From IMG/VR virus record IMGVR_UViG_3300045988_180775: a DNA stretch of 64,000 nucleotides. The stretch is one strand, 5' to 3'. The stretch's first letter is position 1; each line of letters starts with the position of its first letter. Of this stretch, positions 2,679 to 44,293 are shown piece by piece. The notes under the pieces were generated by a model. That model ran no database searches. It worked only from the letters and a program-made list of their open reading frames with translations, and had not been told where the DNA came from. The translations under genes were made by a program, and so were the position numbers. Source of the DNA: a virus.

Positions 2679-4433
2679 TCAGGGGTTTGCGGCAAAAAGC
2701 AGGTTACTGATTTCTCCGCACACAGCGTAGATGCCGGCGGTATCTTTCTTTCCGCTGGCTCCGGAGGTAAGTACGACCACGCCGCAGCCCGTGTCAGGAT
2801 TGTAGCACATGAGGTTGTACGCACCGTATGCGCTGCCGGTGTGATAGAACAATCTGCTCTGCCCATAGGTATTGGCTCGCAGACGCAGAGGCTGGCACTG
2901 GTAGAATCCGCCGGACACAGCCTTATCGCCGTGTGACTCCAATGTGGAGACGATGGACGGAGAAAGGTATTGTGCGCCCTCGTATTTGCCATCACCGGCA
3001 AGCAACGCCACAATTTTTCCAAGGTCGTAGGCGCTGATGGTGAGTCCGCCTGCGAATCCACTGCCGTCCGTACCGGGCAGTTCGTCATCAATAGCCTTGA
3101 GCATTTCCTGGTAGGACAGGCCCGTGCTGCCATCGGCACGGTAGAGCACCGCCAGTTTTTTCGTATCGGATACACTCCCTGTTCGGAATGCCGCGTCGAT
3201 GGACAGTGGACGGTAGAGGTAATGTCCAAGCAGCTCGTCCATCGTGCAGCTGTTTGCTCGCTCGACCGCAAGCCCCAGTGCAGAGAAGGCGTAGTTGTTA
3301 TACAGCCAGTTTTCCAAGTTGCCGGAACAGACCTCGCGTGTCGCAGACGAAGACATGAGTCGCGTCTTCATCCCCTCATAGCTTCTTGATACATCCTCCG
3401 GTGCCCTGAGAGAAGATGTATGTGTGAGAACGGAACGGACTGTAATGTGGTCTCCTTCCTGTGCTTTGTGGATGGGAAAACCGAGGTAGGTGTCCAGCTC
3501 TGTATCGAGAGTCATCGTTCCTTCTTCTGCGGAAAGGCTCGCTGCCATACCAACAAGCACTTTTGAGATGGATGCAGCCCGAACTTTCGTATCTGCTGTC
3601 ATGGCTGATACTCCGCGAACCGCCTCTCCATACGCAAAGGTATCTGATACATGGCCGTCCTTAATGTACGCAATCGACAGACCGACCGCACCGTACTTTT
3701 TTGCAATCGCATTGATTCTGTTTTGCAACGCTGCGTGCTGTTCTGTGGCCTGCACCACGGCTGACGCCGGGATTGTCCGGACAACAGGTCCGTTATTCTG
3801 GAGCCAGCAGCCGAGTGCGAGAATCATATCGACAGCTTCTTTATGATTCATCGTGCCTTTCGGCTCGAATCCTTTTTCTGAAGCGGTCAGGATGCCGTTC
3901 TCCATGCACCATTTCACAGCTCTTCTCGCGTAAAGCGGGACCTGCGCGGCGTCAGCGCACGCAAGCAGCGTGCGGGATGAAAGCGGAGCGGCGTCACAGC
4001 CCATCGCCTTCGCCAGACGGGCAGCCATCACAGCGGCCTCATTCCGTGTCAGCGGTGTGTCCGGCTCCAGTACGCCGGCCGCCGTGCCATTTATGATTCC
4101 GTTTGCCTTTGCCCAGCTCACCTGAAGCGCGTAGTATGCGTTCTCCGGAACATCGGGGAACGATGTGCTCTGAACCGTATCAAGCTCCGGGTTTGCGAGG
4201 TTCACCAGCATGGTCAGGAACTGCGCCCGTGTGGTCTTACCTTCTGTCTCAAGCATTTCTTCCAGGATACCGTCCGGCACGCCGGCTTCAAGACTCTGAG
4301 TCGGCTCAGTGTTATACGTTGCGTCTCGCACCTCCGTATCGGTCTCAAATTCTAATGCTGCGGAGCTTGGCGTCGCGAAAAGCAGCAGCAAAAAAGCCGC
4401 AGCAAATGCGGTAAATTTTCTTTTCACGTTCAT
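2679..4433 (-). CDS. secreted SLH-domain serine hydrolase, beta-lactamase/PBP4 family
   Basis: N-terminal signal peptide (MNVKRKFTAFAAAFLLLLFATPSSA). SLH-like repeats (FPDVPENAYYALQVSWAKANGI...LTRNEAAVMAARL). Serine hydrolase motifs SISK (SxxK) and YNN. Confidence 0.75.
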   Translation of the reverse strand: MNVKRKFTAFAAAFLLLLFATPSSAALEFETDTEVRDATYNTEPTQSLEAGVPDGILEEMLETEGKTTRAQFLTMLVNLANPELDTVQSTSFPDVPENAYYALQVSWAKANGIINGTAAGVLEPDTPLTRNEAAVMAARLAKAMGCDAAPLSSRTLLACADAAQVPLYARRAVKWCMENGILTASEKGFEPKGTMNHKEAVDMILALGCWLQNNGPVVRTIPASAVVQATEQHAALQNRINAIAKKYGAVGLSIAYIKDGHVSDTFAYGEAVRGVSAMTADTKVRAASISKVLVGMAASLSAEEGTMTLDTELDTYLGFPIHKAQEGDHITVRSVLTHTSSLRAPEDVSRSYEGMKTRLMSSSATREVCSGNLENWLYNNYAFSALGLAVERANSCTMDELLGHYLYRPLSIDAAFRTGSVSDTKKLAVLYRADGSTGLSYQEMLKAIDDELPGTDGSGFAGGLTISAYDLGKIVALLAGDGKYEGAQYLSPSIVSTLESHGDKAVSGGFYQCQPLRLRANTYGQSRLFYHTGSAYGAYNLMCYNPDTGCGVVVLTSGASGKKDTAGIYAVCGEISNLLFAANP

Positions 4434-4450
4434 AAAAAATATTGGCCGCT

Positions 4451-4490
4451 CCTCCCCCCACGCCTTTCGGCGCGTGGGGGAGAAACGGCA
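4451..4490 (-). terminator. GC-rich hairpin between genes (possible terminator/attenuator)
   Basis: ctcccccacgc...gcgtgggggag inverted repeat. The T-run on minus strand lies about 10 nt after the stem, so terminator function is uncertain. Confidence 0.35.
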
Positions 4491-4508
4491 TTCTCCTTTC
4501 CGATAAAA

Positions 4509-5054
4509 TTATTGCCATCTCACGGCATGGTAGATTCCCGCTCCCTGTTCCGGGTCATTTTTGCTTGCTGGAAGGTCTTCATAGTGGACGCCCCGCATCT
4601 TCCGGGTAATCTTGATGGGATACGGAAGAGCTGCGTTGTCCTCGTTGTAGCAGGCAATGTCGATGCCGACGCCGCGAAGCTCGGCACTATAGGGCCGGTA
4701 TAAGCTGACGGTTTCCCTCAGATGCTTGTCGAGCGCGTCACGCAACTGCTCAAACGGGATGGACAGGTCTGCAATGACCGGATACCATCTGAAATCCTTC
4801 AGACGGTACTGCTTTACGCTCCCGTTGTAGAAGCGGTGGATATGCGGAAGCAGGAAGTCCGGATTCTCCGCGATGAATGCGCGGTTCCACCGAACGACCA
4901 GTTCGTACACATCCTGCCCGTTGAACTCGCCGTAGCCTTCATAGCATGGCTCGTGGATAAAGGTCCCGTCCGGGCAGGCAATATAGCCTGCCCGGTCAGT
5001 ACGCAGGTTCTGTGTGTTGTCAGTATCGGCAAAAAGCCAGGAAAAGCATCCCAT
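4509..5054 (-). CDS. hypothetical protein (181 aa)
   Basis: Track ORF 4509..5231 trimmed to in-frame ATG 5054 preceded by GGGAGGCGGAGAC. Upstream 59 codons look like noncoding read-through (R/S/T rich). Confidence 0.55.
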   Translation of the reverse strand: MGCFSWLFADTDNTQNLRTDRAGYIACPDGTFIHEPCYEGYGEFNGQDVYELVVRWNRAFIAENPDFLLPHIHRFYNGSVKQYRLKDFRWYPVIADLSIPFEQLRDALDKHLRETVSLYRPYSAELRGVGIDIACYNEDNAALPYPIKITRKMRGVHYEDLPASKNDPEQGAGIYHAVRWQ

Positions 5055-6267: not shown

Positions 6268-7182
6268 TTACGCCTCCCTTTCCGCCTGCTGCATCAGCTG
6301 GGCAAGGATATCGTAGGCGTCTGTACCCTTTACCTTGTTGAGCAGTGCCATTGTGTCCGCATAACGTTCTCTGATGACAGGCATACCGCAGAGCGCGGAA
6401 CGAACCTGAAAATATCCCGGCGTCCGCTTGGCGGCAGCCAGCAGATGTGCTACGTTGCAGACACTCAACTCTTCTGCGCATCCGGCCCACTCGAAGGAGT
6501 CTCGGCCGATGGGTGCGCCGTTGCGGGGTGGAGTATTCCGCTCAATGGCGTCCAGGTACTCCTGCGTGTAACGCTCGGTGGAGGTGTCTTGAAGCGCCTC
6601 ATAGGCCATCTTGAACGCGGCCAGCCACAGCCAAATGCGGTGTGCGATGGTTCGTCCCATATACGGGACGGTCTCCACGCCGTCCATGTCCATCTCCAGC
6701 CATGCGGAGAAGGCAACGGGATTTGCCACGAAGCCCTTCTCAGAGTTGAAGCTGCCCAGCAGGTCCGTTTCTCTCTCGTCGAGGTCGTCCTGATACTCTG
6801 TTTCTCCGTTTGCGAGCATATCGGGATGATTGTCCCTATACTCTTCCAGCAACATGGTCTTGCGCTCACGAAGCTCACCCTTGGCCGTTTCGTAATCAAA
6901 GAAGTAGTCGTCCGTTGTGCAGACAAACTTCTCCATGAAATAGCCGGGTTTCTTCCAGTAGCCGGAAAGAGCCTTCAAAGTGGCAGTCTCCGTCAGGCAA
7001 ATGACCGCAGAGCCAAGGTCTCCGGTGATATACACATGATAGCCGTCCATCACCGCACGAATCGCGTACGCCTGCGTCCCTGGCTGTCTCCAGTTCAGAA
7101 CGCGCACGTTTTCGTCCAGAATGTCGAGACGTGCCTTGTGGTTTGCGAATCGCTTTTCAGCTTTTACCATTTCCTGATTCAT
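6268..7182 (-). CDS. hypothetical protein (304 aa)
   Basis: ORF. The antisense plus-strand ORF 6235..7242 was rejected on composition. Confidence 0.6.
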   Translation of the reverse strand: MNQEMVKAEKRFANHKARLDILDENVRVLNWRQPGTQAYAIRAVMDGYHVYITGDLGSAVICLTETATLKALSGYWKKPGYFMEKFVCTTDDYFFDYETAKGELRERKTMLLEEYRDNHPDMLANGETEYQDDLDERETDLLGSFNSEKGFVANPVAFSAWLEMDMDGVETVPYMGRTIAHRIWLWLAAFKMAYEALQDTSTERYTQEYLDAIERNTPPRNGAPIGRDSFEWAGCAEELSVCNVAHLLAAAKRTPGYFQVRSALCGMPVIRERYADTMALLNKVKGTDAYDILAQLMQQAEREA

Positions 7183-7204
7183 TTTTTACTTCTCCTTTCC
7201 GCGT

Positions 7205-7396
7205 TCAGCAGTAGCTGCGTGCAAAATCCCGGTAAGCGTTGATACTCATTTCACAGTCATCGACCAGTCGATTGATGACGGAGATTTCGTCCTCGGCAAC
7301 ACCGGAATCCTGAAGCTGCTTGAGCTTCTCGTTCACTTCCTCTACGGTCTCACAGGTAGTGAACCGGTGAGAATGGAAATCCAAAACATAAAACAT
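7205..7396 (-). CDS. small hypothetical protein (63 aa)
   Basis: ORF with RBS GAAAGGAGAAGATATC upstream. Confidence 0.4.
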   Translation of the reverse strand: MFYVLDFHSHRFTTCETVEEVNEKLKQLQDSGVAEDEISVINRLVDDCEMSINAYRDFARSYC

Positions 7397-7418
7397 AGAT
7401 ATCTTCTCCTTTCGGTTT

Positions 7419-7649
7419 TCAAATGGTTGTGTTGTAATCCTTCATCTTCACTTGGATGATAATTTGCGTACATTTGACAGTCACGAATGTCACTTTTGCT
7501 TCCAGGATACCCGGCATAGCGACTGCCGGAATCTGGTATAGGCTGCGAAAATGCCCAATCTCCTGCAAGCCGACGCGAACTACGACAGGGATTTCATCGC
7601 TGGCGGCACCGATTTGGCTGCAAAAGTCGAAAACAGTCAGTTTCTTCAT
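7419..7649 (-). CDS. small hypothetical protein (76 aa)
   Basis: Track ORF trimmed to ATG at 7649 (MKKLTVFDF) preceded by GGGGGATAACCCT. Confidence 0.4.
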   Translation of the reverse strand: MKKLTVFDFCSQIGAASDEIPVVVRVGLQEIGHFRSLYQIPAVAMPGILEAKVTFVTVKCTQIIIQVKMKDYNTTI

Positions 7650-7664
7650 AGGGTTATCCCCCAC

Positions 7665-8210
7665 TCAGTTCCAGCAGAGATTCCTGATTTCGCGGTCAGA
7701 CAGACCAATCGTTCCATCCAGCATCTCCGTCAAGAACTCATACTGCTCGTCGCCAGTCATGCGGTCGGCATACTCCAAAACATTGTGGATAATGCGACCC
7801 GCCGTGCCGTCGATGTCGAAGTTGTTCAGAAGCCACTCGTAAGTGCCTTCGAGGCCGCAGGCTTCAGTCTCCTCGTCATCTGTGTCGGCGTTGCCATTTT
7901 CAAGAGCGTCAGCAAGGTCGTTGAGCATCTCTTGGATGGCGTCAGCGTCTTCCACCAACGTCTTGATGTCTGGCACACCACTCACGCTGCCCTGCGCATC
8001 GACCAACATCTTGACGTGTTCCTCGGTATCGAAGCTGTCCGCGTAAGAACGGACTTCGGCTGCAAGACTCTCGGCGTCAGATGCGTCTTTCGTCAGAACC
8101 GTGAAGGAGAAATCTTCCCCCGCCGGACTGCACTGGTTAAATTCGATGCTATCGCTGTCCATATCGACTGCCCATCCGTAGCTTTCTGCAATTTGAATCA
8201 TTTTTTCCAT
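7665..8210 (-). CDS. acidic hypothetical protein (181 aa), first gene after cassette copy 2
   Basis: ORF with conserved cassette TIR AAAAAGGAGAATTAAAAAATG. Confidence 0.55.
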   Translation of the reverse strand: MEKMIQIAESYGWAVDMDSDSIEFNQCSPAGEDFSFTVLTKDASDAESLAAEVRSYADSFDTEEHVKMLVDAQGSVSGVPDIKTLVEDADAIQEMLNDLADALENGNADTDDEETEACGLEGTYEWLLNNFDIDGTAGRIIHNVLEYADRMTGDEQYEFLTEMLDGTIGLSDREIRNLCWN

Positions 8211-8381
8211 TTTTTAATTCTCCTTTTTTGAAATTTTTTTGATATATAAAAGCCAGCATCCGTATGGACGCTGACTGAATTTTCTTTGTGTTTGTGATAC
8301 TTCTTTTGTATGGTCTCAGCATACCGGCAGGCACGGAAAACTCCGCATTTTGCAAATTGGAACCTAAGAACCGAGGAACCT
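8211..8381 (-). promoter_or_regulatory. conserved intergenic cassette copy 2
   Basis: Hairpin B cagcatcc/ggacgctg at about 8256-8275, hairpin A 8309-8325, GGAACCTAAGAACCGAGGAACC at 8359-8380. Confidence 0.7.
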
Positions 8382-8404
8382 CAAATCTGGAGTGTGAAAA
8401 GACA

Positions 8405-8440
8405 AAAAGAAAAAGCGCCGCCCACAAAGGGGCGGCGCTC
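8405..8440 (-). terminator. rho-independent terminator (minus orientation)
   Basis: gcgccgccc-acaaag-gggcggcgc stem followed on minus strand by TTTTTCTTTTTGTCTTTT. Confidence 0.7.
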
Positions 8441-8444
8441 AGGT

Positions 8445-8657
8445 TTAAGACTTGGGAATGGCCTCCAGAAAGGGTTCGACCTTCCGGAACACCTTCTCAG
8501 AGCAGAGAACATTATTTCCGTTGCCAAGGTGCAGTTCCACGCGGTCGCCGATTCTGTTCCAGACCTTCTCCCCGTGCAGTGTATAGACGGGTAGGCTGCC
8601 GTATCTGCCGGCTTCCACGGTATGCAGCAGAGACGTCAAGTTCTTGATTTTATACAA
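8445..8657 (-). CDS. small hypothetical protein (70 aa)
   Basis: ORF directly followed by terminator. Confidence 0.45.
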   Translation of the reverse strand: MYKIKNLTSLLHTVEAGRYGSLPVYTLHGEKVWNRIGDRVELHLGNGNNVLCSEKVFRKVEPFLEAIPKS

Positions 8658-9411
8658 GGGCCGTCACCTCTGTCATTTCCCCGTCGCAACGGAGAATCTT
8701 GAAGACCGCCATATCCACATTGGGATATGCCTCGGCAATCTTCTGGGCAACCTCGGCCTTGGAGGCTGCGTATACGTCCATGACGAGCATGGGACCACCG
8801 CAGTCCGCCCAGTTGCCCTCCTGGGATTCATCCATCGGGTCAGCATCCTCGGACAGCTGTTGGGGGAAGTAGCCCTGCGCGTCGCGCACATACGAGCTAT
8901 TCAGGAACACAAGATAGCGGCATTCCGCAACCTTGTCCCTGACTCGCTCAAAGAAGGCGCTGGCATCGAAGAGCTTTACCGCTTCCTCAAAGTGACTCGC
9001 ACACTCCTCCGCAGGGACAAACAGGGCAATTTCGTCACCCTCCGGGTCGGTATCCTCGCCGAACAGAACGGTCCCCCACGGCTTGCACTGCCTGGTCAGT
9101 TCCGTTGCAATGCTGCGGAGCGCTTTCCTCGCCTTCTGTTTGGCGTCCTTGACAGCAGGGACATCCATCCAGTTACTGTTGAACATCGTCGTGAGGAGCA
9201 TCCCATCCTCGCCGCTGTAAGTGACCGTATAGAGATTTGCGTCGCAGCCGGGGCTGAACTGATAGTGTTCGTACAGTTCCTTCACCGCAGCGGGAAGCCG
9301 CTCAGAGTCACCTGTCGAAAACCCAGAACCGGGATAGTTTACCTCGCCCTCGGCGTTACACCAGTAATACATGGAATCGGTCTGATATGCTTTGTTCAAA
9401 CTTTTAATCAT
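8650..9411 (-). CDS. hypothetical protein (253 aa)
   Basis: ORF. 8-nt overlap with next gene. Confidence 0.55.
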   Translation of the reverse strand: MIKSLNKAYQTDSMYYWCNAEGEVNYPGSGFSTGDSERLPAAVKELYEHYQFSPGCDANLYTVTYSGEDGMLLTTMFNSNWMDVPAVKDAKQKARKALRSIATELTRQCKPWGTVLFGEDTDPEGDEIALFVPAEECASHFEEAVKLFDASAFFERVRDKVAECRYLVFLNSSYVRDAQGYFPQQLSEDADPMDESQEGNWADCGGPMLVMDVYAASKAEVAQKIAEAYPNVDMAVFKILRCDGEMTEVTALV

Positions 9412-17680: not shown

Positions 17681-17713
17681 AAAAAAACGCCGCCCATCTG
17701 GGCGGCGTTTCTT
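17681..17713 (-). terminator. rho-independent terminator after sigma gene
   Basis: aaaaaaacgccgcccatctgggcggcgtttctt. On minus strand the stem is followed by TTTTTTT. Confidence 0.75.
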
Positions 17714-18680
17714 ATTCAAGAAAGTCCTGAAGCATCTTCCCTGCCTTTCCGTTGCGTAGCTTATCGAGTGTTTTATCTGTAACCTGACGGACACGCTCTC
17801 GCGTTAAGTCCATTTCGTCCCCGATTTCTTTGAGGGTATAAGCACAACCATCCTCCAATCCGAATCGTAAGCGAAGCACACAGGCGTCTCGTGCGGGCAT
17901 ATCGTGCAGGATTTTGTCCATCGTTTCCCATAGTGCCTTCCCTGACGTTGAAATTTCCGGGTTATCCCACTCGTTATGGCTTGGGATGAATTCCGAAAGC
18001 GGTGTGTTGGAATCGCTTGCGGCGTCCGAATTGACGGGCGCATCCAACGAGTCCGGCTTCCGGTACTGGAGCGAGTGTTGGATGATGCGCAGTTTTTTCT
18101 GCTGCTCCCTTTTTGAAAGGGAATCCCACGCATCCCCCTCCATGTATTTTGCGATTTCTAAAGGGTCATCACAAGGTAAGCCTTTTTGCTGCATTTGTTC
18201 TTTTGCATTATTGACGCTCCGCCTGCCCTCCGCAACATAGATGGGCTTGCGAATGGCTGGGTCCGTCGTGGCAAGTGCTCTTGTGATGTTTTGCCTTATC
18301 CAGAAGGTTGCGTAGGTGGAGAACTTCACATTCCTCGAAATGTCAAAAGAGTCGATGGAACGCATGAGGCCGATGTTGCCCTCCTGAATGAGGTCCATGA
18401 ACACCATAGAATCGGCTGAGTTTATATATTTCTTTGCGATGGACACAACAAGCCGAAGATTGCCCTCAACAACCTTATCTTTCGCCCGTCTTCCTGCTTC
18501 TATGGCCTTCATCAGGTCTTTCTCGATTTCGGGGTCAACTGCATTCCCACTCTCCTCGGCAATCACCCGCAGCGTTTCGAGCTGTTCGGCAGCGGCATTC
18601 CCCTTCTGCGCTTTTTCAATACAGCGATTCGCTTCTACCTGCGGCATAATGGGGATGCTGCCAATTTGGCTGAGATACAT
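17712..18680 (-). CDS. RNA polymerase sigma-70 family factor (regions 1.2, 2, 3, 4), element-encoded
   Basis: DLIQEGNIGLMRSIDSFDISRNVKFSTYATFWIRQNITRALA (region 2.1-2.4). YTLKEIGDEMDLTRERVRQVTDKTLDKLR (region 4.2 HTH). VAMYLSQIGSIPIMPQ (region 1.2). Track start 18884 is a TTG inside the promoter -35, so I trimmed to ATG 18680 (GTG 18686 also possible). Confidence 0.85.
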   Translation of the reverse strand: MYLSQIGSIPIMPQVEANRCIEKAQKGNAAAEQLETLRVIAEESGNAVDPEIEKDLMKAIEAGRRAKDKVVEGNLRLVVSIAKKYINSADSMVFMDLIQEGNIGLMRSIDSFDISRNVKFSTYATFWIRQNITRALATTDPAIRKPIYVAEGRRSVNNAKEQMQQKGLPCDDPLEIAKYMEGDAWDSLSKREQQKKLRIIQHSLQYRKPDSLDAPVNSDAASDSNTPLSEFIPSHNEWDNPEISTSGKALWETMDKILHDMPARDACVLRLRFGLEDGCAYTLKEIGDEMDLTRERVRQVTDKTLDKLRNGKAGKMLQDFLE

Positions 18681-18855
18681 CGCCACATGGTCGCCGATAT
18701 TTCCCGGCTGCTTCGCTTCGGTCTCCTGTTCATTCGAAGCTGCGATTTCTTCTGTTTCAGGCTGCTTTTCAATGGCTTCATAGGCAAGCGCACGGTCAGC
18801 GGCTAAATTACTGGTATTCGTGATGTCAACCACCCCCCCTTCATTGAATGCAGCA

Positions 18856-18884
18856 ATTATACCACACAATAGCTTACTTGTCAA
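18856..18884 (-). promoter_or_regulatory. sigma-A-type promoter (TTGACA-17-TGGTATAAT) upstream of sigma gene
   Basis: Minus strand TTGACAagtaagctattgtgTGgTATAAT. Member of a 7-copy promoter family. Confidence 0.65.
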
Positions 18885-19440: not shown

Positions 19441-19956
19441 TTATACCTCCAAAATTTCGATTCCGTACTTTTCCAACATAAGTTTGCGCTTCATGAGGTA
19501 CTTTTCGGTTCGTTTTCCCTTCGCGTCTTCCACGATACGCTCACCGTTGCGGAGATAGACGAAATCTGCCTTGTAGACCATTGGTCGAACCCGCTTGCCA
19601 TTTGGCCGTGTATAGCCCTCGACCAGCGTGAAGTCCTGCTGGAGCCGCAGGTCCTGGATTGCACCAACCTTGTACTGCAAATACAGTTCATCGAAGCGCC
19701 GTGCCTCCCGCTTGCTGGGGAATTTCACGGTTTCTCCATCCACCACGCGAATGACCTTTTTATTGCGATATTTGGATGGCTCAGCAGCGTCCGCTTCTTT
19801 CGGCTGTTTTTGCCTTTTCTGTGCTTCCGGCTGTTTTTTTGCTCGCTGCTGTTTCTGCTCGTCGAGCTTTGCACGCACCTGAATCTGTGCGGAAAGCGGC
19901 AGGCTATTGATGTCAATACCCACCTTCAGTTCCTCCGCCTGTTTGTGGCGCAGCAT
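19441..19956 (-). CDS. DUF1064-family phage protein (putative nuclease/resolvase-like)
   Basis: C-terminal YRNKKVIRVVDGETVKFPSKREARRFDELYL...DFTLVEGY...YKADFVYL...VEDAKG matches the DUF1064 pattern as I recall it. The K/Q-rich N-terminus may be over-called. Confidence 0.55.
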   Translation of the reverse strand: MLRHKQAEELKVGIDINSLPLSAQIQVRAKLDEQKQQRAKKQPEAQKRQKQPKEADAAEPSKYRNKKVIRVVDGETVKFPSKREARRFDELYLQYKVGAIQDLRLQQDFTLVEGYTRPNGKRVRPMVYKADFVYLRNGERIVEDAKGKRTEKYLMKRKLMLEKYGIEILEV

Positions 19957-20311
19957 TTTGGTTGCTTCCTTCTCGCAGCAGAATCAAATTCATGACCCTC
20001 CATACCGTCCAGATACACAGATGGCGAACTATGCTTCTGCTGGTGCCGTGCAGGTCGGCGATTTGCGAAAACGTCATTCTGTCACGAAAATACTTTTGGA
20101 CGATATCGCGGTTTCGCTCAGGAAGTGTGTCCAGCGCTTCATCGAACATCTCGTTAAAGCCCGGTGTAAATGAAATTTGATTCTTACCCCAGGCTGAAAT
20201 TTGATTTTTACACCAGGCAAAGGATGTATCGTACATAATGGCCGCCTTCCGCCACTCCTCCGGGGCGAACTCAGGCTTGTTAATCTTGTCTGTCGTTTGT
20301 TTCTTTGTCAT
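19913..20311 (-). CDS. small sigma-70 region-4-like HTH protein (132 aa)
   Basis: LPERNRDIVQKYFRDRMTFSQIADLHGTSRSIVRHL resembles sigma region 4/ECF HTH. Trimmed to ATG 20311 with RBS GGAAGGAGAAACAAAA. Contains a 24-bp tandem duplication (20171-20218). Confidence 0.45.
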   Translation of the reverse strand: MTKKQTTDKINKPEFAPEEWRKAAIMYDTSFAWCKNQISAWGKNQISFTPGFNEMFDEALDTLPERNRDIVQKYFRDRMTFSQIADLHGTSRSIVRHLCIWTVWRVMNLILLREGSNQNAAPQTGGGTEGGY

Positions 20312-21404
20312 TTTTGTTTCTCCTTCCAACAATCTCTCTTCGTGAGCTGCGCCACAGCATGAGCAGCATCTCGCTGACCGGTCTGGTTCGGTCCTTCCTC
20401 ACGGCTTTCCTCACGCATCGCAGATGCCCGCCGTCCGGGCAAAGCACACCGACGCCGTATGGCACAGTATCCTTCACCGCTTCGAAGACGTCTGCGGGCA
20501 TAACGTAGTAGTTGTAGTCCGCGATGAAGTTGTGCCCGTTAGGAGATTTGAAATCCTCCACAGAGGACTTGACCTCGTAGGCGTAGAAGTCCCCCTTCTC
20601 AATGCCGGAGGTCGAATTGTTGAGCGGCTGAAAGCGCATATAGTCCACGCGGATTTTGTGGTTCGTAGAGTAGTCGAATGTGACCTCTCTCGCCCAGTAG
20701 ATGCGTGGGTCGTTGCGCGGGTCGATGTATCGCTCCAGCATGGCAGAGAGCTGGCGAGTGTGTTCCTTCCGGGTGAAGGCATCACTCGTTTCCGGACAGA
20801 ATTGAGCTGGCTTTCCAAGGATGAAATGGAACGGCAGAGCCTTTTCCAGTACGTCGATAATATTCTGAAGGGTCCCCTGCCCGCATTGGCGCAGATTCTT
20901 CAGTTTGCCGCTCTCTATCAGTCGAACAACATCGCCGATACTTTGGGCACCACTGAACATAAGGCAGTTCTTGGTGCGAGTCGAGAAATTGAGGCACTGA
21001 AACGGAACAGAATCGCACAACTCCTCGATTTTTTTCCGGTTGCCATTCTCAATGGCTTCCTTCAAAGCAGAGGCGAGAGGGCTGCCTGCAAACCGGCGCA
21101 TTTCTTTCAGGATACCCCCCGCATATTTGGGGTGACGCAGCCTCCTTATGGCGAGGTCGAAGCAAGAGTGGAACTTGCCGATGTCAATTTCCAGTGCGTT
21201 TGCGCATTGTGTTGGTGTAAGACCGTCGCGGTAGCGTTTTAAGATAGCTTCCCGCTCCAACTCAGGGAATGTGGCGATGGCAGCGTCTACAGCTGCGTCG
21301 AAAGAGTCGGAGAACTCAGCACACGGCATACACAAGCAATCCTGCATCAAATTCTTTCGCCATTCTACTGACGAGCGAAGCAGGAAACGCTCCTCAGTGT
21401 TCAT
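20280..21404 (-). CDS. three-part protein: sigma region-4-like HTH, then RNAP alpha-CTD-like helix-hairpin-helix, then C-terminal PD-(D/E)xK-like domain
   Basis: EREAILKRYRDGLTPTQCANALEIDIGKFH (region-4-like). LNFSTRTKNCLMFSGAQSIGDVVRL...LKNLRQCGQGTLQNIIDVL (alpha-CTD-like). GDFYAYEVKSSVEDFK (D..E.K nuclease-like). Confidence 0.55.
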   Translation of the reverse strand: MNTEERFLLRSSVEWRKNLMQDCLCMPCAEFSDSFDAAVDAAIATFPELEREAILKRYRDGLTPTQCANALEIDIGKFHSCFDLAIRRLRHPKYAGGILKEMRRFAGSPLASALKEAIENGNRKKIEELCDSVPFQCLNFSTRTKNCLMFSGAQSIGDVVRLIESGKLKNLRQCGQGTLQNIIDVLEKALPFHFILGKPAQFCPETSDAFTRKEHTRQLSAMLERYIDPRNDPRIYWAREVTFDYSTNHKIRVDYMRFQPLNNSTSGIEKGDFYAYEVKSSVEDFKSPNGHNFIADYNYYVMPADVFEAVKDTVPYGVGVLCPDGGHLRCVRKAVRKDRTRPVSEMLLMLWRSSRREIVGRRNKNDKETNDRQD

Positions 21405-21616
21405 TCCGCTCCAACCTCCTCGTCATACTCTTCCGGGGTGATGATTTCTATGTCTTCCGCACTGTAGCCCAGTGCGTCAAGACACAGAAGTTCCGCGACC
21501 TTCTCTTTGTTGATGGATGCAGCAATTTCCTCGTATGAGATATCCCTCTCTGCCGCCTCAAAGCTCAGCTGTACCACAAATGTGGGCAGCCGAAAACAAA
21601 CTCTGTAATTTGCCAT
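21401..21616 (-). CDS. small acidic hypothetical protein (71 aa)
   Basis: ORF. 4-nt overlap with upstream gene. Confidence 0.4.
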   Translation of the reverse strand: MANYRVCFRLPTFVVQLSFEAAERDISYEEIAASINKEKVAELLCLDALGYSAEDIEIITPEEYDEEVGAE

Positions 21617-22170: not shown

Positions 22171-22198
22171 TTGACAAAGCGGCTTGCTGGTGTATAAT
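22171..22198 (+). promoter_or_regulatory. plus-strand sigma-A consensus promoter (TTGACA-16-TGTATAAT)
   Basis: TTGACAaagcggcttgctggtgTATAAT. The only strong plus-strand promoter seen. Drives a short transcript ending at the terminator about 90 nt downstream. Confidence 0.6.
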
Positions 22199-22204
22199 AA
22201 AAGC

Positions 22205-22296
22205 AGAAAGGCGATACCGATAAGCGGTCAGCCTAAGAGAATAGAGTCAAACGAAATGACCGTCTTCCTTTGGCGAGGGGCGGTCATTTTCGTTTG
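22205..22296 (+). ncRNA. candidate antisense small RNA (type I antitoxin-like), about 90 nt
   Basis: Starts about 7 nt after the -10 box. Ends at hairpin gaccgtcttcc-tttg-gcgaggggcggtc (G-U wobbles favour plus-strand folding) followed by ATTTTCGTTT. Its 3' end overlaps the 3' end of the convergent 28-aa peptide gene. Confidence 0.5.
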
Positions 22297-22370
22297 CAAA
22301 TCTGAACTATCAGACCCACAAGGCCGATGATAACAAGAGAATACGCAAAAAGCGATTCGTAAGTAACCAT
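22284..22370 (-). CDS. 28-aa hydrophobic peptide, Fst/Ldr-like candidate type I toxin
   Basis: Unannotated ORF ATG...TGA encoding MVTYESLFAYSLVIIGLVGLIVQICKRK (polar N-terminus, TM helix, KRK tail). SD GGAGGGAGGTGAT sits 4 nt before ATG and is buried in stem cacttccct/agggaggtg. Own promoter lies upstream. Confidence 0.5.
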   Translation of the reverse strand: MVTYESLFAYSLVIIGLVGLIVQICKRK

Positions 22371-22452
22371 TGGCATCACCTCCCTCCACAGGGAAGTGCC
22401 GACCGCCTACCGTATATGGTAACGCCTTTCTGGCTCCTTTTGGAGCATTGTA

Positions 22453-22481
22453 ATCTTACCAAAAAGGCCCCGCTTTGTCAA
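22453..22481 (-). promoter_or_regulatory. promoter for the 28-aa peptide mRNA (TTGACA-17-TAAGAT)
   Basis: Minus strand TTGACAaagcggggcctttttggTAAGATtacaat. About 76-nt structured leader. Confidence 0.45.
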
Positions 22482-22644
22482 TTTCCGCCGCCCACGGTTT
22501 ATCCGCAGGTGGTTATTTTTTTGCCTCGGCTGCTGCATGGGGAAGCCGCACCCAGCCGCCCTTGTGACGAACAAGCTGGATTTTCTTCATAGGAGGCTGG
22601 GCCGGAGTTTCCGGCGCACCCGCCCGCCATTCGGCGGGGTAAAG

Positions 22645-22983
22645 CTAAAGAGCAGCGTCCTGATTGACAGGACATTCGAGACTCATGTTTTTTCTCTTCT
22701 CACAGGACTCTGCCTGCGACCACAAGCTGTTTGGTAGATTGAGCACCGTTACGAGGACATCCCCTGCAAACAGATAGACGTGCCGGTGATATACTCGAAT
22801 ATTGTTGATGGTTTTGTTTTTGAAGCGGATGGATGCAAGGTATCCATTCAGGTGGCCTCTGGTCTCCGAGTGCTTCACGCCAAAGTCAAAGGCTTTCTGT
22901 GCATTGCGCACGGCTGCTCTTTTGCCGAGACCAGCACGCTGTTTTGTACGCTTCCTCGCGTGTTTACTTACCTGCGCTGACAT
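22645..22983 (-). CDS. basic hypothetical protein (112 aa), doubtful
   Basis: Track ORF trimmed to ATG 22983 (MSAQVSKHARKRTK...). 20-nt out-of-frame overlap with upstream gene. Confidence 0.3.
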   Translation of the reverse strand: MSAQVSKHARKRTKQRAGLGKRAAVRNAQKAFDFGVKHSETRGHLNGYLASIRFKNKTINNIRVYHRHVYLFAGDVLVTVLNLPNSLWSQAESCEKRKNMSLECPVNQDAAL

Positions 22984-25897: not shown

Positions 25898-25926
25898 ATT
25901 ATACCACACATTAGCTTGATTGTCAA
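25898..25926 (-). promoter_or_regulatory. sigma-A-type promoter (TTGACA-17-TGGTATAAT) for helicase
   Basis: Minus strand TTGACAatcaagctaatgtgTGgTATAAT. Confidence 0.65.
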
Positions 25927-30474: not shown

Positions 30475-30503
30475 ATTATACCACACATTAGCTTAAAAGT
30501 CAA
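30475..30503 (-). promoter_or_regulatory. sigma-A-type promoter (TTGACT-17-TGGTATAAT) for ung
   Basis: Minus strand TTGACTtttaagctaatgtgTGgTATAAT. Confidence 0.65.
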
Positions 30504-31249: not shown

Positions 31250-32743
31250 TTATTCAGCCTTGCCGTCCGCGTCATTCTTGGCAGGCGGTTCCTGCGGCTG
31301 TGTGGGAGCTGCCGTATTGTCCGGCTTGTCCATGACGATGACAGGAGAGGTCTGCTGGGCCGTGAGCTTGCCGCCGATGGCTCCGGCAATAAGAGACTTA
31401 ATATCCAACCCCATTCCGGAAGAAAGGCCCTCTGTGACCTGTGTGGTGCCGTTGATGATGTCACCCAGCAGCTTCGCGCTGTTGCCTTCGCCGTACATCG
31501 TGATTTTATCCACCTTGCTGAGAGGTTCAGCGACATTCTTGGCGATTTCCGGCAAAGCGTTCATAATCATCTCAACGATGGCCGCGTCGCCGTATTTCTT
31601 CATAGCTTCTGCCTTCTTGTCGATACCTTCTGCTTCAGCAACGGCCTTGGCACGAATGACATTGGCTTCCGCCTCACCGACGGCGGCAATACCAGCAGCT
31701 TCCTGCTCGCGGGCGTACTTTACGGCGTCGGCTTCCGCTCTCTTTGCATCCGCCTCACGTTGGCGCTCGAAAAGCTGCGCCTCCGCGTCCTTCTGACGTC
31801 GGTAGAGGTCGGCATCCGCCTGTGCGCGGACCTCCGCATCCAGAGACTGCTTCTTAACTTCGACCTCTTTGTTTTTCAGCTCCGCTTCGCGTTCCGCCTT
31901 GGCGATTTGCGCATTGACGGTAGCCGTCTCAATGGAGCGCTGCTGTTCCTGCTGCTGGATGGTATACGCGGCATCGGCCTCGGCCTTCTTCGTATCCTCC
32001 TGAACCTTGAGTTCAGCTTTGCGGATGGAGAGGTCATTCAGCTTCTGAGCGATTTGCATTTCGGACTCGACTTTGGCATCGTTAGACGCCTTGGCCGCCT
32101 GCGCCTGAGCGATAGCCACGTCACGCTCCGCCTCAGCTTTGGCGATGGCAGCATCCTTCTGGATTTTGCTCATATTGTCCTGACCGAGGGAGTTGATTAA
32201 GCTGTTTTCGTCCGTGACACGCTGGATATTGCAGGAGATGATTTCGATACCGAGCGCACTCATATCTGTCTGTGCTTTTGACTGTACCTCGTCACCGAAT
32301 TTCTTTCGGTCATTGCAGATTTCCTTGAGAGAGATGGTGCCGATGATTTCGCGCATATTGCCCTGGAGAGAATCCGCGATGGCGCAGCTGAAATCCGCTT
32401 CTCGCATATTCAGAAAGTTCTTCATGGCGAGCTGGATGCCTTCCGGGTCCGTCTTGACTCTGACCTTGGCAACCGCGTCCACATCGACGCCGATGAAGTC
32501 GTTGGTCGGGATATAGCCTTCCGACTTGATGTCGATGGAGATTTGCCGGACAATGAGCTTATCTACACGCTCCAGAAATGGAATTCGGATACCTGCTCGC
32601 CCAATCAGAACGCGGGGCTTTTTTCGTATACCGGAAATGATGTAGGCCACATCGGGCGGAGCCTTTACATAGCCCAGAAGAAAGATGATTACCACAAGGG
32701 CCACGACTGCAATTACAGGCAGCAGCTTCACGAGATTTTCCAT
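31250..32743 (-). CDS. flotillin-like SPFH/band-7 protein (YqiK/FloT-like)
   Basis: N-terminal TM, SPFH core (YIISGIRKKPRVLIGRAGIRIPFLERVDKL...) and long EA-rich coiled coil (AKAEAERDVAIAQAQAAKASNDAKV...). Confidence 0.85.
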   Translation of the reverse strand: MENLVKLLPVIAVVALVVIIFLLGYVKAPPDVAYIISGIRKKPRVLIGRAGIRIPFLERVDKLIVRQISIDIKSEGYIPTNDFIGVDVDAVAKVRVKTDPEGIQLAMKNFLNMREADFSCAIADSLQGNMREIIGTISLKEICNDRKKFGDEVQSKAQTDMSALGIEIISCNIQRVTDENSLINSLGQDNMSKIQKDAAIAKAEAERDVAIAQAQAAKASNDAKVESEMQIAQKLNDLSIRKAELKVQEDTKKAEADAAYTIQQQEQQRSIETATVNAQIAKAEREAELKNKEVEVKKQSLDAEVRAQADADLYRRQKDAEAQLFERQREADAKRAEADAVKYAREQEAAGIAAVGEAEANVIRAKAVAEAEGIDKKAEAMKKYGDAAIVEMIMNALPEIAKNVAEPLSKVDKITMYGEGNSAKLLGDIINGTTQVTEGLSSGMGLDIKSLIAGAIGGKLTAQQTSPVIVMDKPDNTAAPTQPQEPPAKNDADGKAE

Positions 32744-32776: not shown

Positions 32777-32805
32777 ATTATACCACATAACACCTTGCAA
32801 GTCAA
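32777..32805 (-). promoter_or_regulatory. sigma-A-type promoter (TTGACT-17-TGGTATAAT) for flotillin gene
   Basis: Minus strand TTGACTtgcaaggtgttatgTGgTATAAT. Confidence 0.65.
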
Positions 32806-32897: not shown

Positions 32898-33302
32898 TCA
32901 CTCAATAGAGTCTTCCGGTTCCAAGGCCGCTCCGCAATGCACGCAACGGTTCGACGTTGCGGCGCAGCATCCGCAGAGGACATCGGCCGGAGTATCAGCG
33001 CAGGTGATATGTCTGCCGCAGACCTGACAAAAGCCGTCTGAGAAAGCGTGGAGAACGATGCGGTTTCTACACTTGCGGCATTCCTGCGGACCGGCAAGGC
33101 GCTGGACCCGTCCAACTTGTCCATCCTCCAGCATGACCTTAATGCCGCGTGGATGTGTTGGACTGTTGGTGAGAATCCGCTTCACGACGCCGCGTGTGAG
33201 TTTACCTGTCGGCTGGTCTGCTTTGAGTACGATATCTACTGGCATACCTGGGTGAATGGATGCCCGTTTGGTACAGGTTGGCTCAGGGAATTTATTTGTC
33301 AT
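32898..33302 (-). CDS. YwbE (DUF2196)-domain protein fused to C-terminal zinc ribbon
   Basis: IHPGMPVDIVLKADQPTGKLTRGVVKRILTNSPTHPRGIKVMLEDGQVGRVQR matches YwbE family as I recall it. C-terminus CRKCRN...CQVCGRHITC...CGCC...CVHCG. Confidence 0.55.
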   Translation of the reverse strand: MTNKFPEPTCTKRASIHPGMPVDIVLKADQPTGKLTRGVVKRILTNSPTHPRGIKVMLEDGQVGRVQRLAGPQECRKCRNRIVLHAFSDGFCQVCGRHITCADTPADVLCGCCAATSNRCVHCGAALEPEDSIE

Positions 33303-35031
33303 TCTGAGGGACCCCTCTCACTTTTGCCTTTTCGATTTTTCCAATCACTTCTGTTACCTTCTGTGCAGTTAGAGGACTGGCAGTGGATTTATCCAGTGCG
33401 TCAAGCAGTTCCGGCAGCTCGCCAAGTTTTACGACCGGGATTTCGCTGTTGTCCGCATCCTGCAATTTTACATTTGGGTTGGCAAGGCAGATGATGCCGC
33501 ATACCGGAACATCCTCACCAACGATTTTCGACAGTAAGGCAGCGTGACGCTTAACTTGGAAGGCGGGGCTTTCCGTTGTGGTGAAATGCCCCGCATTTCG
33601 CATATCCCTGTCCCAATAGTTCGTGTCATCGACGCGGATGGTTCCAACGTAGTTTTTTGTCTCAATATGAATGACGCCGGCAGGCCCTACGAGAAGGTGG
33701 TCGATTTCCTGTGGCTCTTTCATATAGTCCCACGCGGCGATACGGATACATCCTCCGCTGTACTTGCTCACGCAGTCTGCCGCGATGCTGCGGTATGCGC
33801 TGTGCTCTGCAAGCCACCACTTGAGTTTGTAATTCACTTCCCTCTCACCGGCTTCGCCCAGTTCTCGTGCTTTGCGCTCCCGCTCCTCCTGCTCTTGCTC
33901 CACACGAGCGGCTTCCGCCGCCGCGCTGGCGATTTGATTGCGGTAGTTCGAGCACACGCTTTCCGCGAGACCAGTCACGCCTTCCAGTATCAGATTAAGC
34001 TGACTGTTGAGTTGAAAATGTTTGGCTTCTATTTCGCTGCGCAAGTGCAAGATGTTTTTCGATTTTTCGAGAAGCACACACTCACCGAGCGTGAGGTCGG
34101 AGTAAGCGTCGCAGAAGGCATCTGGGATATTGAGCCTGCACTTCTCCGTTATCCAGCTTTTTACTTCCGCTCTCTTCTGTGCTCTGACACAGCAATACTC
34201 CGGATGCGTCCGCTCCAGCGTGTCGATGTACTGTCGCGCATGGGCGATGATGCCGCTTCGCTCCGCAGCAATCGCTGCTTCCTCGGCCTGCTTCGCCTCC
34301 GCTTCCCGGCGTCTGGCCTCTTCCTGCCTGCGTTGCCGCTCCTCACGGATATGCTGCGCGGCCTTCCCGCTTACGCCAGGTTTGAACTCGTACATCTTGC
34401 CGGTCGCAAACAGGGCTTTCAACAGGACGGAGACATAATAGGCGCTATACGGAATGAGCAGGACAATGCCAAGGTAGCAGAACACATAGGAGACGACGCC
34501 GAGAGCCTTCCACAACGAGACAACCAGGACGAAAGCCGCAACGTAGGCGGCCAGATAGATAAGGCATTTTGTCCTCTGATTTTTGTCGCGAGTCATGGTC
34601 AAGAATTTGCTCTGCTCCACATAATCCGCATACTGTTCGTCCGATACGACTTTCTGCCACTCGTCCGCCATGCTGCGGTTTGCAAAGAAGAAGGTTCGGA
34701 GCATTAACAACAAGCCGATAACCGCCGGCAGAATGAAGGCCACAATGCAGACACAGAGGAGTACGAGCACAGCGCTAATCACCTTGAGGATACCGTGACC
34801 GAGCAGTTCGGCGAGCCATCCGCACAGCTGGGTCGCCAGAATTCCGCCCATGCCGATGCAGAAGGTCTTAGTGAGCAGCGCGGTTTCCTTTTTCAGAATT
34901 GCCTTGACTGTACTGTAGTATGTTTCCGCAGACCTTATCCCCTCGTCGTTCTCCACAATTTCCCGTGCGGCATCCATGTACTTATGAAGCCGGTCAACAA
35001 ACCAATCTTTGATGGAATCCAACATAAGCAA
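33292..35031 (-). CDS. NERD-domain membrane protein (4 TM, coiled coil, C-terminal NERD)
   Basis: TM helices near the N-terminus. C-terminal GEREVNYKLKWWLAE...EIDHLLVGPAGVIHIETKNYVGTI resembles nuclease-related NERD domain. Confidence 0.55.
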   Translation of the reverse strand: MLMLDSIKDWFVDRLHKYMDAAREIVENDEGIRSAETYYSTVKAILKKETALLTKTFCIGMGGILATQLCGWLAELLGHGILKVISAVLVLLCVCIVAFILPAVIGLLLMLRTFFFANRSMADEWQKVVSDEQYADYVEQSKFLTMTRDKNQRTKCLIYLAAYVAAFVLVVSLWKALGVVSYVFCYLGIVLLIPYSAYYVSVLLKALFATGKMYEFKPGVSGKAAQHIREERQRRQEEARRREAEAKQAEEAAIAAERSGIIAHARQYIDTLERTHPEYCCVRAQKRAEVKSWITEKCRLNIPDAFCDAYSDLTLGECVLLEKSKNILHLRSEIEAKHFQLNSQLNLILEGVTGLAESVCSNYRNQIASAAAEAARVEQEQEERERKARELGEAGEREVNYKLKWWLAEHSAYRSIAADCVSKYSGGCIRIAAWDYMKEPQEIDHLLVGPAGVIHIETKNYVGTIRVDDTNYWDRDMRNAGHFTTTESPAFQVKRHAALLSKIVGEDVPVCGIICLANPNVKLQDADNSEIPVVKLGELPELLDALDKSTASPLTAQKVTEVIGKIEKAKVRGVPQNDK

Positions 35032-44176: not shown

Positions 44177-44205
44177 TATTATACCACACTTTATCTTATT
44201 TGTAA
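44177..44205 (-). promoter_or_regulatory. sigma-A-type promoter (TTTACA-17-TGGTATAAT) for signal peptidase
   Basis: Minus strand TTTACAaataagataaagtgTGgTATAAT. Confidence 0.6.
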
Positions 44206-44293
44206 AGTATCGAATGAAGTGACCTTACATACAACGGCGCAAGCAAAAAGGCACGTCAACGAAATGTTGGCGTGCCTGTGGCCTGTGCTGATA

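Follow-up and report, generated by a model that had tools for sequence, protein, structure and literature searches.

In the RNA polymerase (RNAP) holoenzyme, region 4 of the sigma factor (sigma4) lies at the -35 hexamer of the promoter and the C-terminal domain of the alpha subunit (alphaCTD) at the proximal UP element. We analyzed a stretch of 64,000 nucleotides from the IMG/VR virus record IMGVR_UViG_3300045988_180775 (hereafter the window), in which the gene 20280..21404 encodes a protein with the same folds in the same order of DNA-reading elements, followed by a nuclease. From its profile and residue similarities we place this fusion protein, as a diverged member, in an unnamed family found in phages and mobile elements, here called the sigma4-alphaCTD family. 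In this family a single chain carries the two domains as a module, sigma regions 1-3 and the N-terminal domain (NTD) of alpha being absent, and most stand-alone members keep R586, R588 and Q589 of sigma, the motif 'ALRKLRHP', and R265, N268, C269, G296 and K298 of alpha. The fusion protein, in contrast, replaces the -35-reading residues as well as K298, R603 and E261, and adds the nuclease.

Phages and mobile elements carry other sigma-like regulators, such as the ArpU/RinA-type late activators and the T4 appropriators AsiA and MotA. Compared by description, these are likewise mobile-element proteins that are made of sigma region 4 or target it, and the stand-alone members of the sigma4-alphaCTD family occupy similar genomic positions, but unlike the fusion protein they are not known to carry an alphaCTD or a nuclease. 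Nucleases of the PD-(D/E)xK superfamily that are guided by a helix-turn-helix (HTH), among them the type II/IIS enzymes SdaI and PaqCI and the fusions of the nuclease studied here to XRE domains, also combine a recognition domain with a nuclease; the fusion protein differs in that no methyltransferase partner or defense signature was found for it and in having a head derived from RNAP parts. To our knowledge, a recognition head built from RNAP parts has not been described. For the nuclease itself the closest described protein is MmcB of Caulobacter crescentus, together with its Pfam family MmcB-like (PF06319) and the structure 3dnx (SPO1766). Caulobacter MmcB is described as a PD-(D/E)xK endonuclease that acts in crosslink repair and protects against mitomycin C (PMC9578287). 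The nuclease studied here scores below the threshold of that family, belongs to a tight subfamily of mobile elements, is fused to a head, and, as far as is visible, gives no sign of SOS-regulated chromosomal repair.

The explanation that we favor, tentatively and at a little below an even chance, is that the fusion protein is a DNA endonuclease tethered to DNA by a head that reads it through an HTH and a helix-hairpin-helix (HhH) domain.

Three folds in one polypeptide

A previous reading of the letters, made without database searches (the sequence-only reading), had described a 374-aa open reading frame (ORF) on the minus strand at 20280..21404, which is present exactly as it said, with a sigma-70 region-4 HTH, an alpha-CTD-like middle and a PD-(D/E)xK-like C-terminus, all three of which are borne out by the profile and fold comparisons below. 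Close homologues of the fusion protein (P0001-P0007) are 78-99% identical to it and are found in many human-gut metagenome assemblies. When it is compared with a 79%-identical orthologue in an Oscillospiraceae genome (L015; Oscillospiraceae bacterium CM18GR_63, JAWQDX010000001.1), the overall ratio of nonsynonymous to synonymous substitution rates (dN/dS) is 0.23, and the ratios by part are 0.33 for the HTH, 0.26 for the alphaCTD and 0.07 for the nuclease, indicating that this is a real, constrained gene and not a chance reading frame.

Residues 38-76 reach 17.6 bits against Sigma70_r4_2, one of the Pfam region-4 families PF04545 / PF08281, under the cut-off of 25.7, but region 4 of the 79%-identical orthologue reaches 38.2 bits and members of the sigma4-alphaCTD family reach 49-73 bits, which identifies this part of the protein as a divergent region-4 homologue. 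An AlphaFold2 (AF2) model of residues 1-205, for which 37 distant homologues were used, reaches a predicted local distance difference test (pLDDT) score of 85 overall and above 95 over the HTH (residues 40-90); it also shows a helix at residues 12-24, in the N-terminal part. Foldseek matches the model of the head to region 4 of SigR, SigE, SigD and SigF with template modeling (TM) scores of 0.74-0.89 and a probability of 1.00. Since no match to Sigma70_r2 was found in Pfam or NCBIfam, the protein is not a sigma factor. The residues of primary sigma that contact the -35 hexamer, which we take to be R584, E585, R586, R588 and Q589 in E. coli numbering, are replaced by I75, G76, K77, H79 and S80. 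A recognition helix without the -35-reading residues of sigma-A makes TTGACA improbable as a target, and judging from these replacements the site of the head is probably a different one. The HTH keeps its 'RRLRHP' end; the equivalent of R603 is Tyr, and the equivalent of E261 is also replaced.

The first 105 residues of the window allele are 53-57% identical to the L015/P0004 allele, with high dS, and the rest is 82-94% identical. The gene is thus a mosaic whose HTH belongs to a separate, old allele. We considered positive selection as the cause of the HTH divergence and ruled it out, as a dN/dS of 0.33 with high dS marks an old recombined allele and not rapid adaptation.

The middle of the protein (residues 133-188) scores 29 bits against Pfam RNA_pol_A_CTD (PF03118), for which the cut-off is 23.8 (E 8.9e-7), and the rpoA models of NCBIfam match this part only, far under their cut-offs. 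Foldseek aligns it with isolated alphaCTDs at TM scores of 0.73-0.79, so that the (HhH)2 fold is present. R143, N146, C147 and G175 correspond to R265, N268, C269 and G296 of E. coli alpha, which leaves four residues of the '265 determinant' kept and two changed, K298 to G177 and S299 to T178. The protein is not an RpoA, since the NTD domains (PF01000, PF01193) are absent. Between the equivalents of sigma P601 and alpha R265 there are 50 residues, within the family range of 33-72.

The C-terminal ~150 residues are predicted to form a catalytically competent nuclease. A model of this part has a pLDDT above 90 over residues 210-368, and its fold matches 3dnx and the core of restriction endonucleases; a search of the PDB with the nuclease profile gave no match, 3dnx having surfaced by fold comparison only. 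Modeled strands 1-3 (residues 236-243, 251-259 and 272-278) carry the catalytic residues, and across 61 homologues E240 is conserved in at least 90% and D254, E277 and K279 are invariant, so that E240, D254 and the E277-x-K279 motif are all intact in the window. The sequence-only reading had correctly singled out 'EVK' as part of the catalytic motif, but its choice of D272 in 'GDFYAYEVK' calls for a correction; the catalytic Asp is most likely D254, in RVDYM on the second strand.

The nuclease domain scores 13.1 bits against Pfam MmcB-like, below the cut-off of 22, and similar sub-threshold matches were obtained for 24 of the 47 members of its subfamily. A Selenomonas plasmid protein annotated by PGAP as 'MmcB family DNA repair protein' (WP_014426021.1) scores 23.6 bits, above the cut-off, and aligns with the profile of the subfamily at an hhalign probability of 99.8% (E 5e-29). 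This protein is a bridge by which the subfamily belongs, transitively, to Pfam MmcB-like. Proteins of Bacillus Herelleviridae phages named 'MmcB-like DNA repair protein' or 'endonuclease' are ~35% identical to the nuclease. Homologues of the C-terminal domain number more than 100; they are 55-65% identical and mostly proteins of 210-240 aa, often with a C-terminal zinc (Zn) ribbon, which is present in 9/47 subfamily members, and the subfamily was seen only in phages, prophages and plasmids of Firmicutes. In a Lacrimispora prophage the stand-alone nuclease ends the early region, directly before the terminase. Fusions of this nuclease to an XRE HTH have arisen independently (P0021, P0028, P0072, P0092). 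A Cys-rich Zn ribbon of 46 residues lies near the nuclease C-terminus in P0003, P0007 and P0013 (420-aa form), and the 374-aa form of the window is without it through an in-frame deletion at 20283-20330.

A copy of the nuclease part, 80% identical, also occurs on a 4.9-kb contig of an 'uncultured Prevotellaceae' metagenome-assembled genome (L016; CATXZX010000185.1). This contig was probably misassigned in binning and comes from the same Firmicutes element, which would make it no case of cross-phylum spread.

The sequence-only reading had named membership of unrelated, well-known families, such as the terminase small subunit, as an outcome that would speak against it. No profile match to a terminase small subunit, an anti-sigma factor or any other named family of this kind was obtained in Pfam, PHROGs or NCBIfam.

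The sigma4-alphaCTD family and the candidate role of the fusion

An exhaustive phmmer search with residues 1-205 as query (E<=1e-3) identified at least 215 cluster representatives that match the head, many of them spanning residues ~12-190 in one stretch; a word-indexed homology search with the N-terminal 202 residues reached near-identical proteins only. Stand-alone module proteins have 190-225 aa, and tandem duplicates (P0126, P0127, P0137) occur, as do frequent forms of 330-350 aa led by an XRE HTH (P0147, P0176, P0166, P0283), Zn-ribbon-led forms, and proteins with many alphaCTD repeats. In the last group, P0131 (1313 aa), P0266 (736 aa), P0132 and P0260 have 4-7 tandem alphaCTD-like repeats, that is, multivalent HhH arrays. 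Sigma70_r4 and RNA_pol_A_CTD are both above the Pfam threshold in the family members tested.

We counted conserved residues in 37 stand-alone members mapped to E. coli numbering, using what we take to be the C-terminal sequence and residue numbering of E. coli sigma-70. A profile of these 37 proteins matches true RpoA at ~1e-20 and true RpoD at ~1e-17, and the family consensus is nearly the C-terminus of primary sigma. On the alpha side, R265 and N268 are each kept in 35/37, C269 in 32/37 and G296 in 36/37, and position 298 is K in 24/37 and R in 5 more. On the sigma side, R586 is kept in 32/37, Q589 in 28/37, R588 in 26/37, E585 in 16/37 and R584 in 15/37. The alpha-contact Arg of sigma, R603, is kept in 23/37, and the acidic residue at alpha 259/261 often is. 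These counts indicate that the DNA-contact surface is the best-conserved feature of the family.

The sources of these sequences give sigma4-alphaCTD proteins almost no names. Our search of the literature, which included the paper on polyvalent proteins, found no account of the family or of the triple fusion, and an annotated phage collection held no full-length sigma4-alphaCTD protein, the matches there being pieces of rpoA or rpoD or unannotated fragments. Six family-bearing contigs that we examined are phage-like or unclassified; in one of them (L010) the gene is flanked by a primase/D5 replication block on one side and by terminase and portal genes on the other.

Stand-alone and XRE-led sigma4-alphaCTD proteins resemble regulators among the early or middle genes of phage-like contigs, and the element in the window has its own RpoD-like sigma and near-identical consensus promoters. 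These observations are compatible with a regulator, decoy or appropriator, in which the head would occupy -35/UP-like DNA or sequester the partners of sigma and alpha, and the nuclease fold would serve for oligomerization or as a DNA clamp. That a non-catalytic use exists is shown by a paralogue of the fusion protein in L015, whose ExK motif reads 'YEIYNS', with the catalytic Lys lost and the domain degenerate. The fusion protein, on the other hand, keeps every catalytic residue, the nuclease is its most constrained part, and its HTH is without the -35-reading residues, so we consider a purely regulatory role improbable.

Among the 376 proteins fetched, module and nuclease occur together only in the close relatives of the fusion protein. 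The triple fusion is confined to one lineage of Oscillospiraceae conjugative elements and is a new variant made from known parts. The sequence-only reading had called the combination undescribed; this holds for the triple fusion, with its restricted occurrence, but not for the sigma4-alphaCTD pair, which is a large and recurrent module. A sister lineage (contigs up to 147 kb; 164 collection blocks) encodes at the syntenic site a nuclease-only protein (P0013) that is 90% identical. The gene upstream is 100% identical between the fused and head-less loci, which differ by a clean indel of ~620 nucleotides (nt) that is exactly the head. The existence of the head-less variant indicates that the head is accessory or dispensable.

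In L015 the orthologue is followed by a gene (7091-9370) for the paralogue mentioned above, a protein of ~760 aa that combines three [Sigma70_r4 + RNA_pol_A_CTD] units with a diverged domain of the MmcB-like kind (hhalign probability 98.6%). The nuclease domains of the two proteins are ~32% identical, and they have the junction '...P..FCPE' in common, a motif found after each of the modules of P0126, P0127 and the L015 paralogue. P0127 (402 aa) corresponds to the first two units of the paralogue, and the 132-aa HTH protein encoded directly downstream of the fusion gene is 41-44% identical to both P0127 units. Judging from this similarity, the downstream gene (19913..20311) is a remnant, left by internal deletion, of an L015-type gene with three sigma4-alphaCTD units and a nuclease-like domain. 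A 214-aa 'Sigma70_r4' call in L001 was considered as a full module and proved to be an over-extended call of the same 132-aa HTH gene.

Since two paralogous fusions share one junction, the association between module and nuclease is old and has been maintained. This bears on a neutral origin, according to which a deletion joined neighboring regulator and nuclease genes that kept separate jobs. In its favor, both modules are common in phages and mobile elements and reside there in regions of the same kind, and the locus is plastic: the head and the Zn ribbon have been lost in some forms, and the downstream gene has suffered a deletion. Nevertheless, the shared junction in paralogues so far diverged and the repeated fusion of this nuclease to DNA-binding domains both argue against it, and adjacent separate genes were not seen: an arrangement of a stand-alone sigma4-alphaCTD gene followed by a separate nuclease gene was considered for L010 and L011 and rejected (hhalign probability 0.1%). 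We therefore regard a neutral fusion as the least probable of the explanations considered here.

The sequence-only reading had offered, among other possibilities, a DNA-targeting nuclease guided by an HTH, and the intact catalytic residues, the kept DNA contacts of the alphaCTD and the independent XRE fusions make this the explanation we prefer. For its other suggestion, a recruiter or mimic of RNAP (anti-sigma, appropriator or decoy), our results give neither support nor grounds for rejection. In the preferred explanation, the nuclease would have acquired at its N-terminus a head with two DNA-reading domains, a copy of the half of RNAP that recognizes promoters. In this head, the sigma region-4 HTH would lie in the major groove and the alphaCTD (HhH)2 domain, after a linker of ~50 residues, in the adjacent minor groove and backbone, anchoring the protein on particular DNA sites, while the nuclease, on a flexible tether of ~25 residues, would cut or nick nearby DNA. 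The company that the gene keeps in the operon, a helicase of the UvrD type and a resolvase-like DUF1064 protein, makes DNA processing, repair or recombination on behalf of the element its probable role.

Several observations weigh against this explanation. With I, G, K, H and S at the five -35-contact positions and Gly in place of alpha K298, DNA binding by the head is not assured, and a target site for the head, looked for near the gene and the promoters, was not found. In the sister lineage, which is abundant in gut metagenomes, the same locus encodes a head-less nuclease between identical flanks. Region 4 of sigma and the alphaCTD also serve in contacts with proteins, such as the beta flap and activators, and the kept 'RRLRHP' fits such a use.

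The last point leads to a nuclease tethered to RNAP, with the region-4-like domain docked on the beta-flap tip or the alphaCTD in contact with an RNAP partner; an MmcB-type nuclease would thereby be brought to transcribing or stalled polymerase and, together with the UvrD-type helicase of the operon, would process DNA in a transcription-coupled manner. Between the divergent alleles the 4.1 helix 'EREAILKRYRDGLTP' and the 'RRLRHP' patch are kept and the DNA-reading face is not, and Foldseek also matches the head to structures of SigmaA-r4/beta-flap chimeras. The UvrD-family helicase encoded in the same operon and the link of MmcB to crosslink repair (PMC9578287) point in the same direction. There is no direct sign of RNAP binding among our results, however, and across the family it is the DNA contacts of the alphaCTD that are conserved most strongly. 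The recognition helix is highly diverged while under purifying selection (dN/dS 0.33), which resembles a change of DNA specificity, and the nuclease-only variant occupies the same operon. We consider RNAP tethering unlikely, if less so than a regulatory role or a neutral fusion, and retain the DNA-anchored endonuclease as the preferred explanation.

The operon and the element

Features of the gene and its surroundings are given in Table 1. The ATG of the fusion gene overlaps the stop codon of the 71-aa upstream ORF (ATGA), with the Shine-Dalgarno sequence GAGGAGG ~11 nt upstream, and its 3' end overlaps the next gene, which places it inside an operon. On the minus strand the order is UvrD-type helicase, 123-aa protein, 200-aa membrane protein, ASCH protein, 71-aa acidic protein and fusion gene, followed by the HTH remnant, DUF1064 (resolvase-like), a 167-aa protein and the RpoD-like sigma gene with its own promoter. 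The promoter at 25898..25926 probably drives the operon that holds the fusion gene; we infer the assignment of the gene to this operon.

Table 1. Positions in the window of the fusion gene, its parts and associated features.
Feature	Position	Strand	Basis
Whole fusion gene, 374 aa + stop	20280..21404	-	ORF list
Residues 1-35, N-terminal helix with 'EWRK' motif ahead of HTH	21300..21404	-	Alignments, model
Residues 36-95, sigma-70 region-4-like HTH (4.1 + 4.2), end 'AIRRLRHP'	21120..21299	-	
Residues 96-132, helical linker between HTH and alphaCTD	21009..21119	-	Model
Residues 133-190, RNAP alpha-CTD-like (HhH)2 domain	20835..21008	-	Pfam, fold
Residues 191-215, junction 'LPFHFILGKPAQFCPE...'	20760..20834	-	pLDDT <50 over 191-207
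Residues 216-368, MmcB-like PD-(D/E)xK nuclease domain	20301..20759	-	Profile, fold
Catalytic core E240, D254, E277, K279	20568-20687	-	
71-aa acidic ORF upstream of fusion gene, ATGA-coupled	21401..21616	-	
132-aa sigma region-4 HTH protein downstream of fusion gene	19913..20311	-	Pfam Sigma70_r4 33.4 bits
RpoD-like sigma factor, regions 2 and 4	17712-18884	-	
Extended -10 promoter, TTGACA-17-TGgTATAAT, before helicase operon	25898..25926	-	

The 71-aa upstream protein is strongly acidic and is conserved ahead of the fused and head-less nuclease variants alike; it had no match in the family libraries searched, and it may act on the nuclease as a partner or an inhibitor. The downstream gene, which the sequence-only reading had also taken for a small region-4 HTH protein, does match Sigma70_r4 above the cut-off of 24.1, and the 'EWRK' motif of the fusion protein recurs in it and in P0126/P0127. 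Within this gene there is a 24-nt tandem duplication in perfect register, 92% identical, at 20171-20218, which encodes a repeated 'KNQIS' peptide and is kept in the relatives L001 and L006.

Between the genes for the 200-aa membrane protein and the ASCH protein, the relatives L001-L008 have a 464-aa RRXRR-domain gene (3498-4892) that the window lacks at 22178-22963, and L003 has an extra 430-aa RRXRR + HNH gene downstream of sigma. The 464-aa RRXRR gene looks like a mobile endonuclease gene that is present or absent among near-identical elements.

The ORF of the RpoD-like sigma factor has, outside RpoD, its best NCBIfam/PADLOC likeness to MzaA. Because the ORF as listed extends across the promoter of the gene itself, translation must begin further downstream, and the relatives have 373-390 aa. 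Near-identical promoters are found at 18856-18884, 25898-25926, 30475-30503 and 44178-44206 (all on the minus strand) and also at 32777-32805, none of which is expected by chance. They share even their spacer (TTGACAAnnnAGCTAnTGTGTGGTATAAT), and each is located just past a terminator-like hairpin and before an operon; the operons concerned include the helicase operon, the sigma gene and at least two others. These promoters may be an element-specific promoter/operator class, possibly read by the RpoD-like sigma of the element. A search for UP-like A/T tracts upstream of the element promoters and for repeated candidate sites near the fusion gene gave nothing convincing.

The window also encodes components of a type IV secretion system (T4SS), namely VirD4 (44294-46570) and a VirB4-like ATPase (38767-41259), and has few phage matches apart from a T4SS-type lysin; the relative in L015 sits on a 570-kb contig. 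These observations indicate that the element is most likely an integrative conjugative element of Oscillospiraceae. A tRNA search of the window found none. Genes for a NERD-domain protein of 579 aa (33292-35031) and an SPFH/flotillin-like protein of 497 aa (31250-32743), both on the minus strand, lie between the T4SS and replication-type genes. PADLOC was run on the fusion protein, its neighbors in the operon, the UvrD helicase and the NERD protein; it matched the fusion protein to no defense system, and no methyltransferase partner of that protein was found.

Implications for mobile elements and their hosts

The nuclease analysis provides a structural and catalytic assignment for phrog_2776, a common protein of Firmicutes phages listed as of 'unknown function'. 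For the module as a whole a broader idea can be put forward, which we think doubtful: it would be a portable copy of the promoter-recognition half of RNAP that occupies -35/UP DNA or the partners of sigma4 and alphaCTD, silencing, marking or redirecting host transcription, and in the fusion protein and its three-module paralogue a nuclease would be delivered to promoter-like DNA or to RNAP. If true, such mimics of the transcription machinery with an effector attached would form a class of their own and a new one. Should the module bind -35/UP-element DNA as a unit, it would be a natural tool for reading or blocking strong promoters and a new way for mobile elements to disturb host transcription. 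The fusion protein shows that such a head can be coupled to an effector, in this case a nuclease, and that the coupling has been gained and lost within one lineage of human-gut elements.

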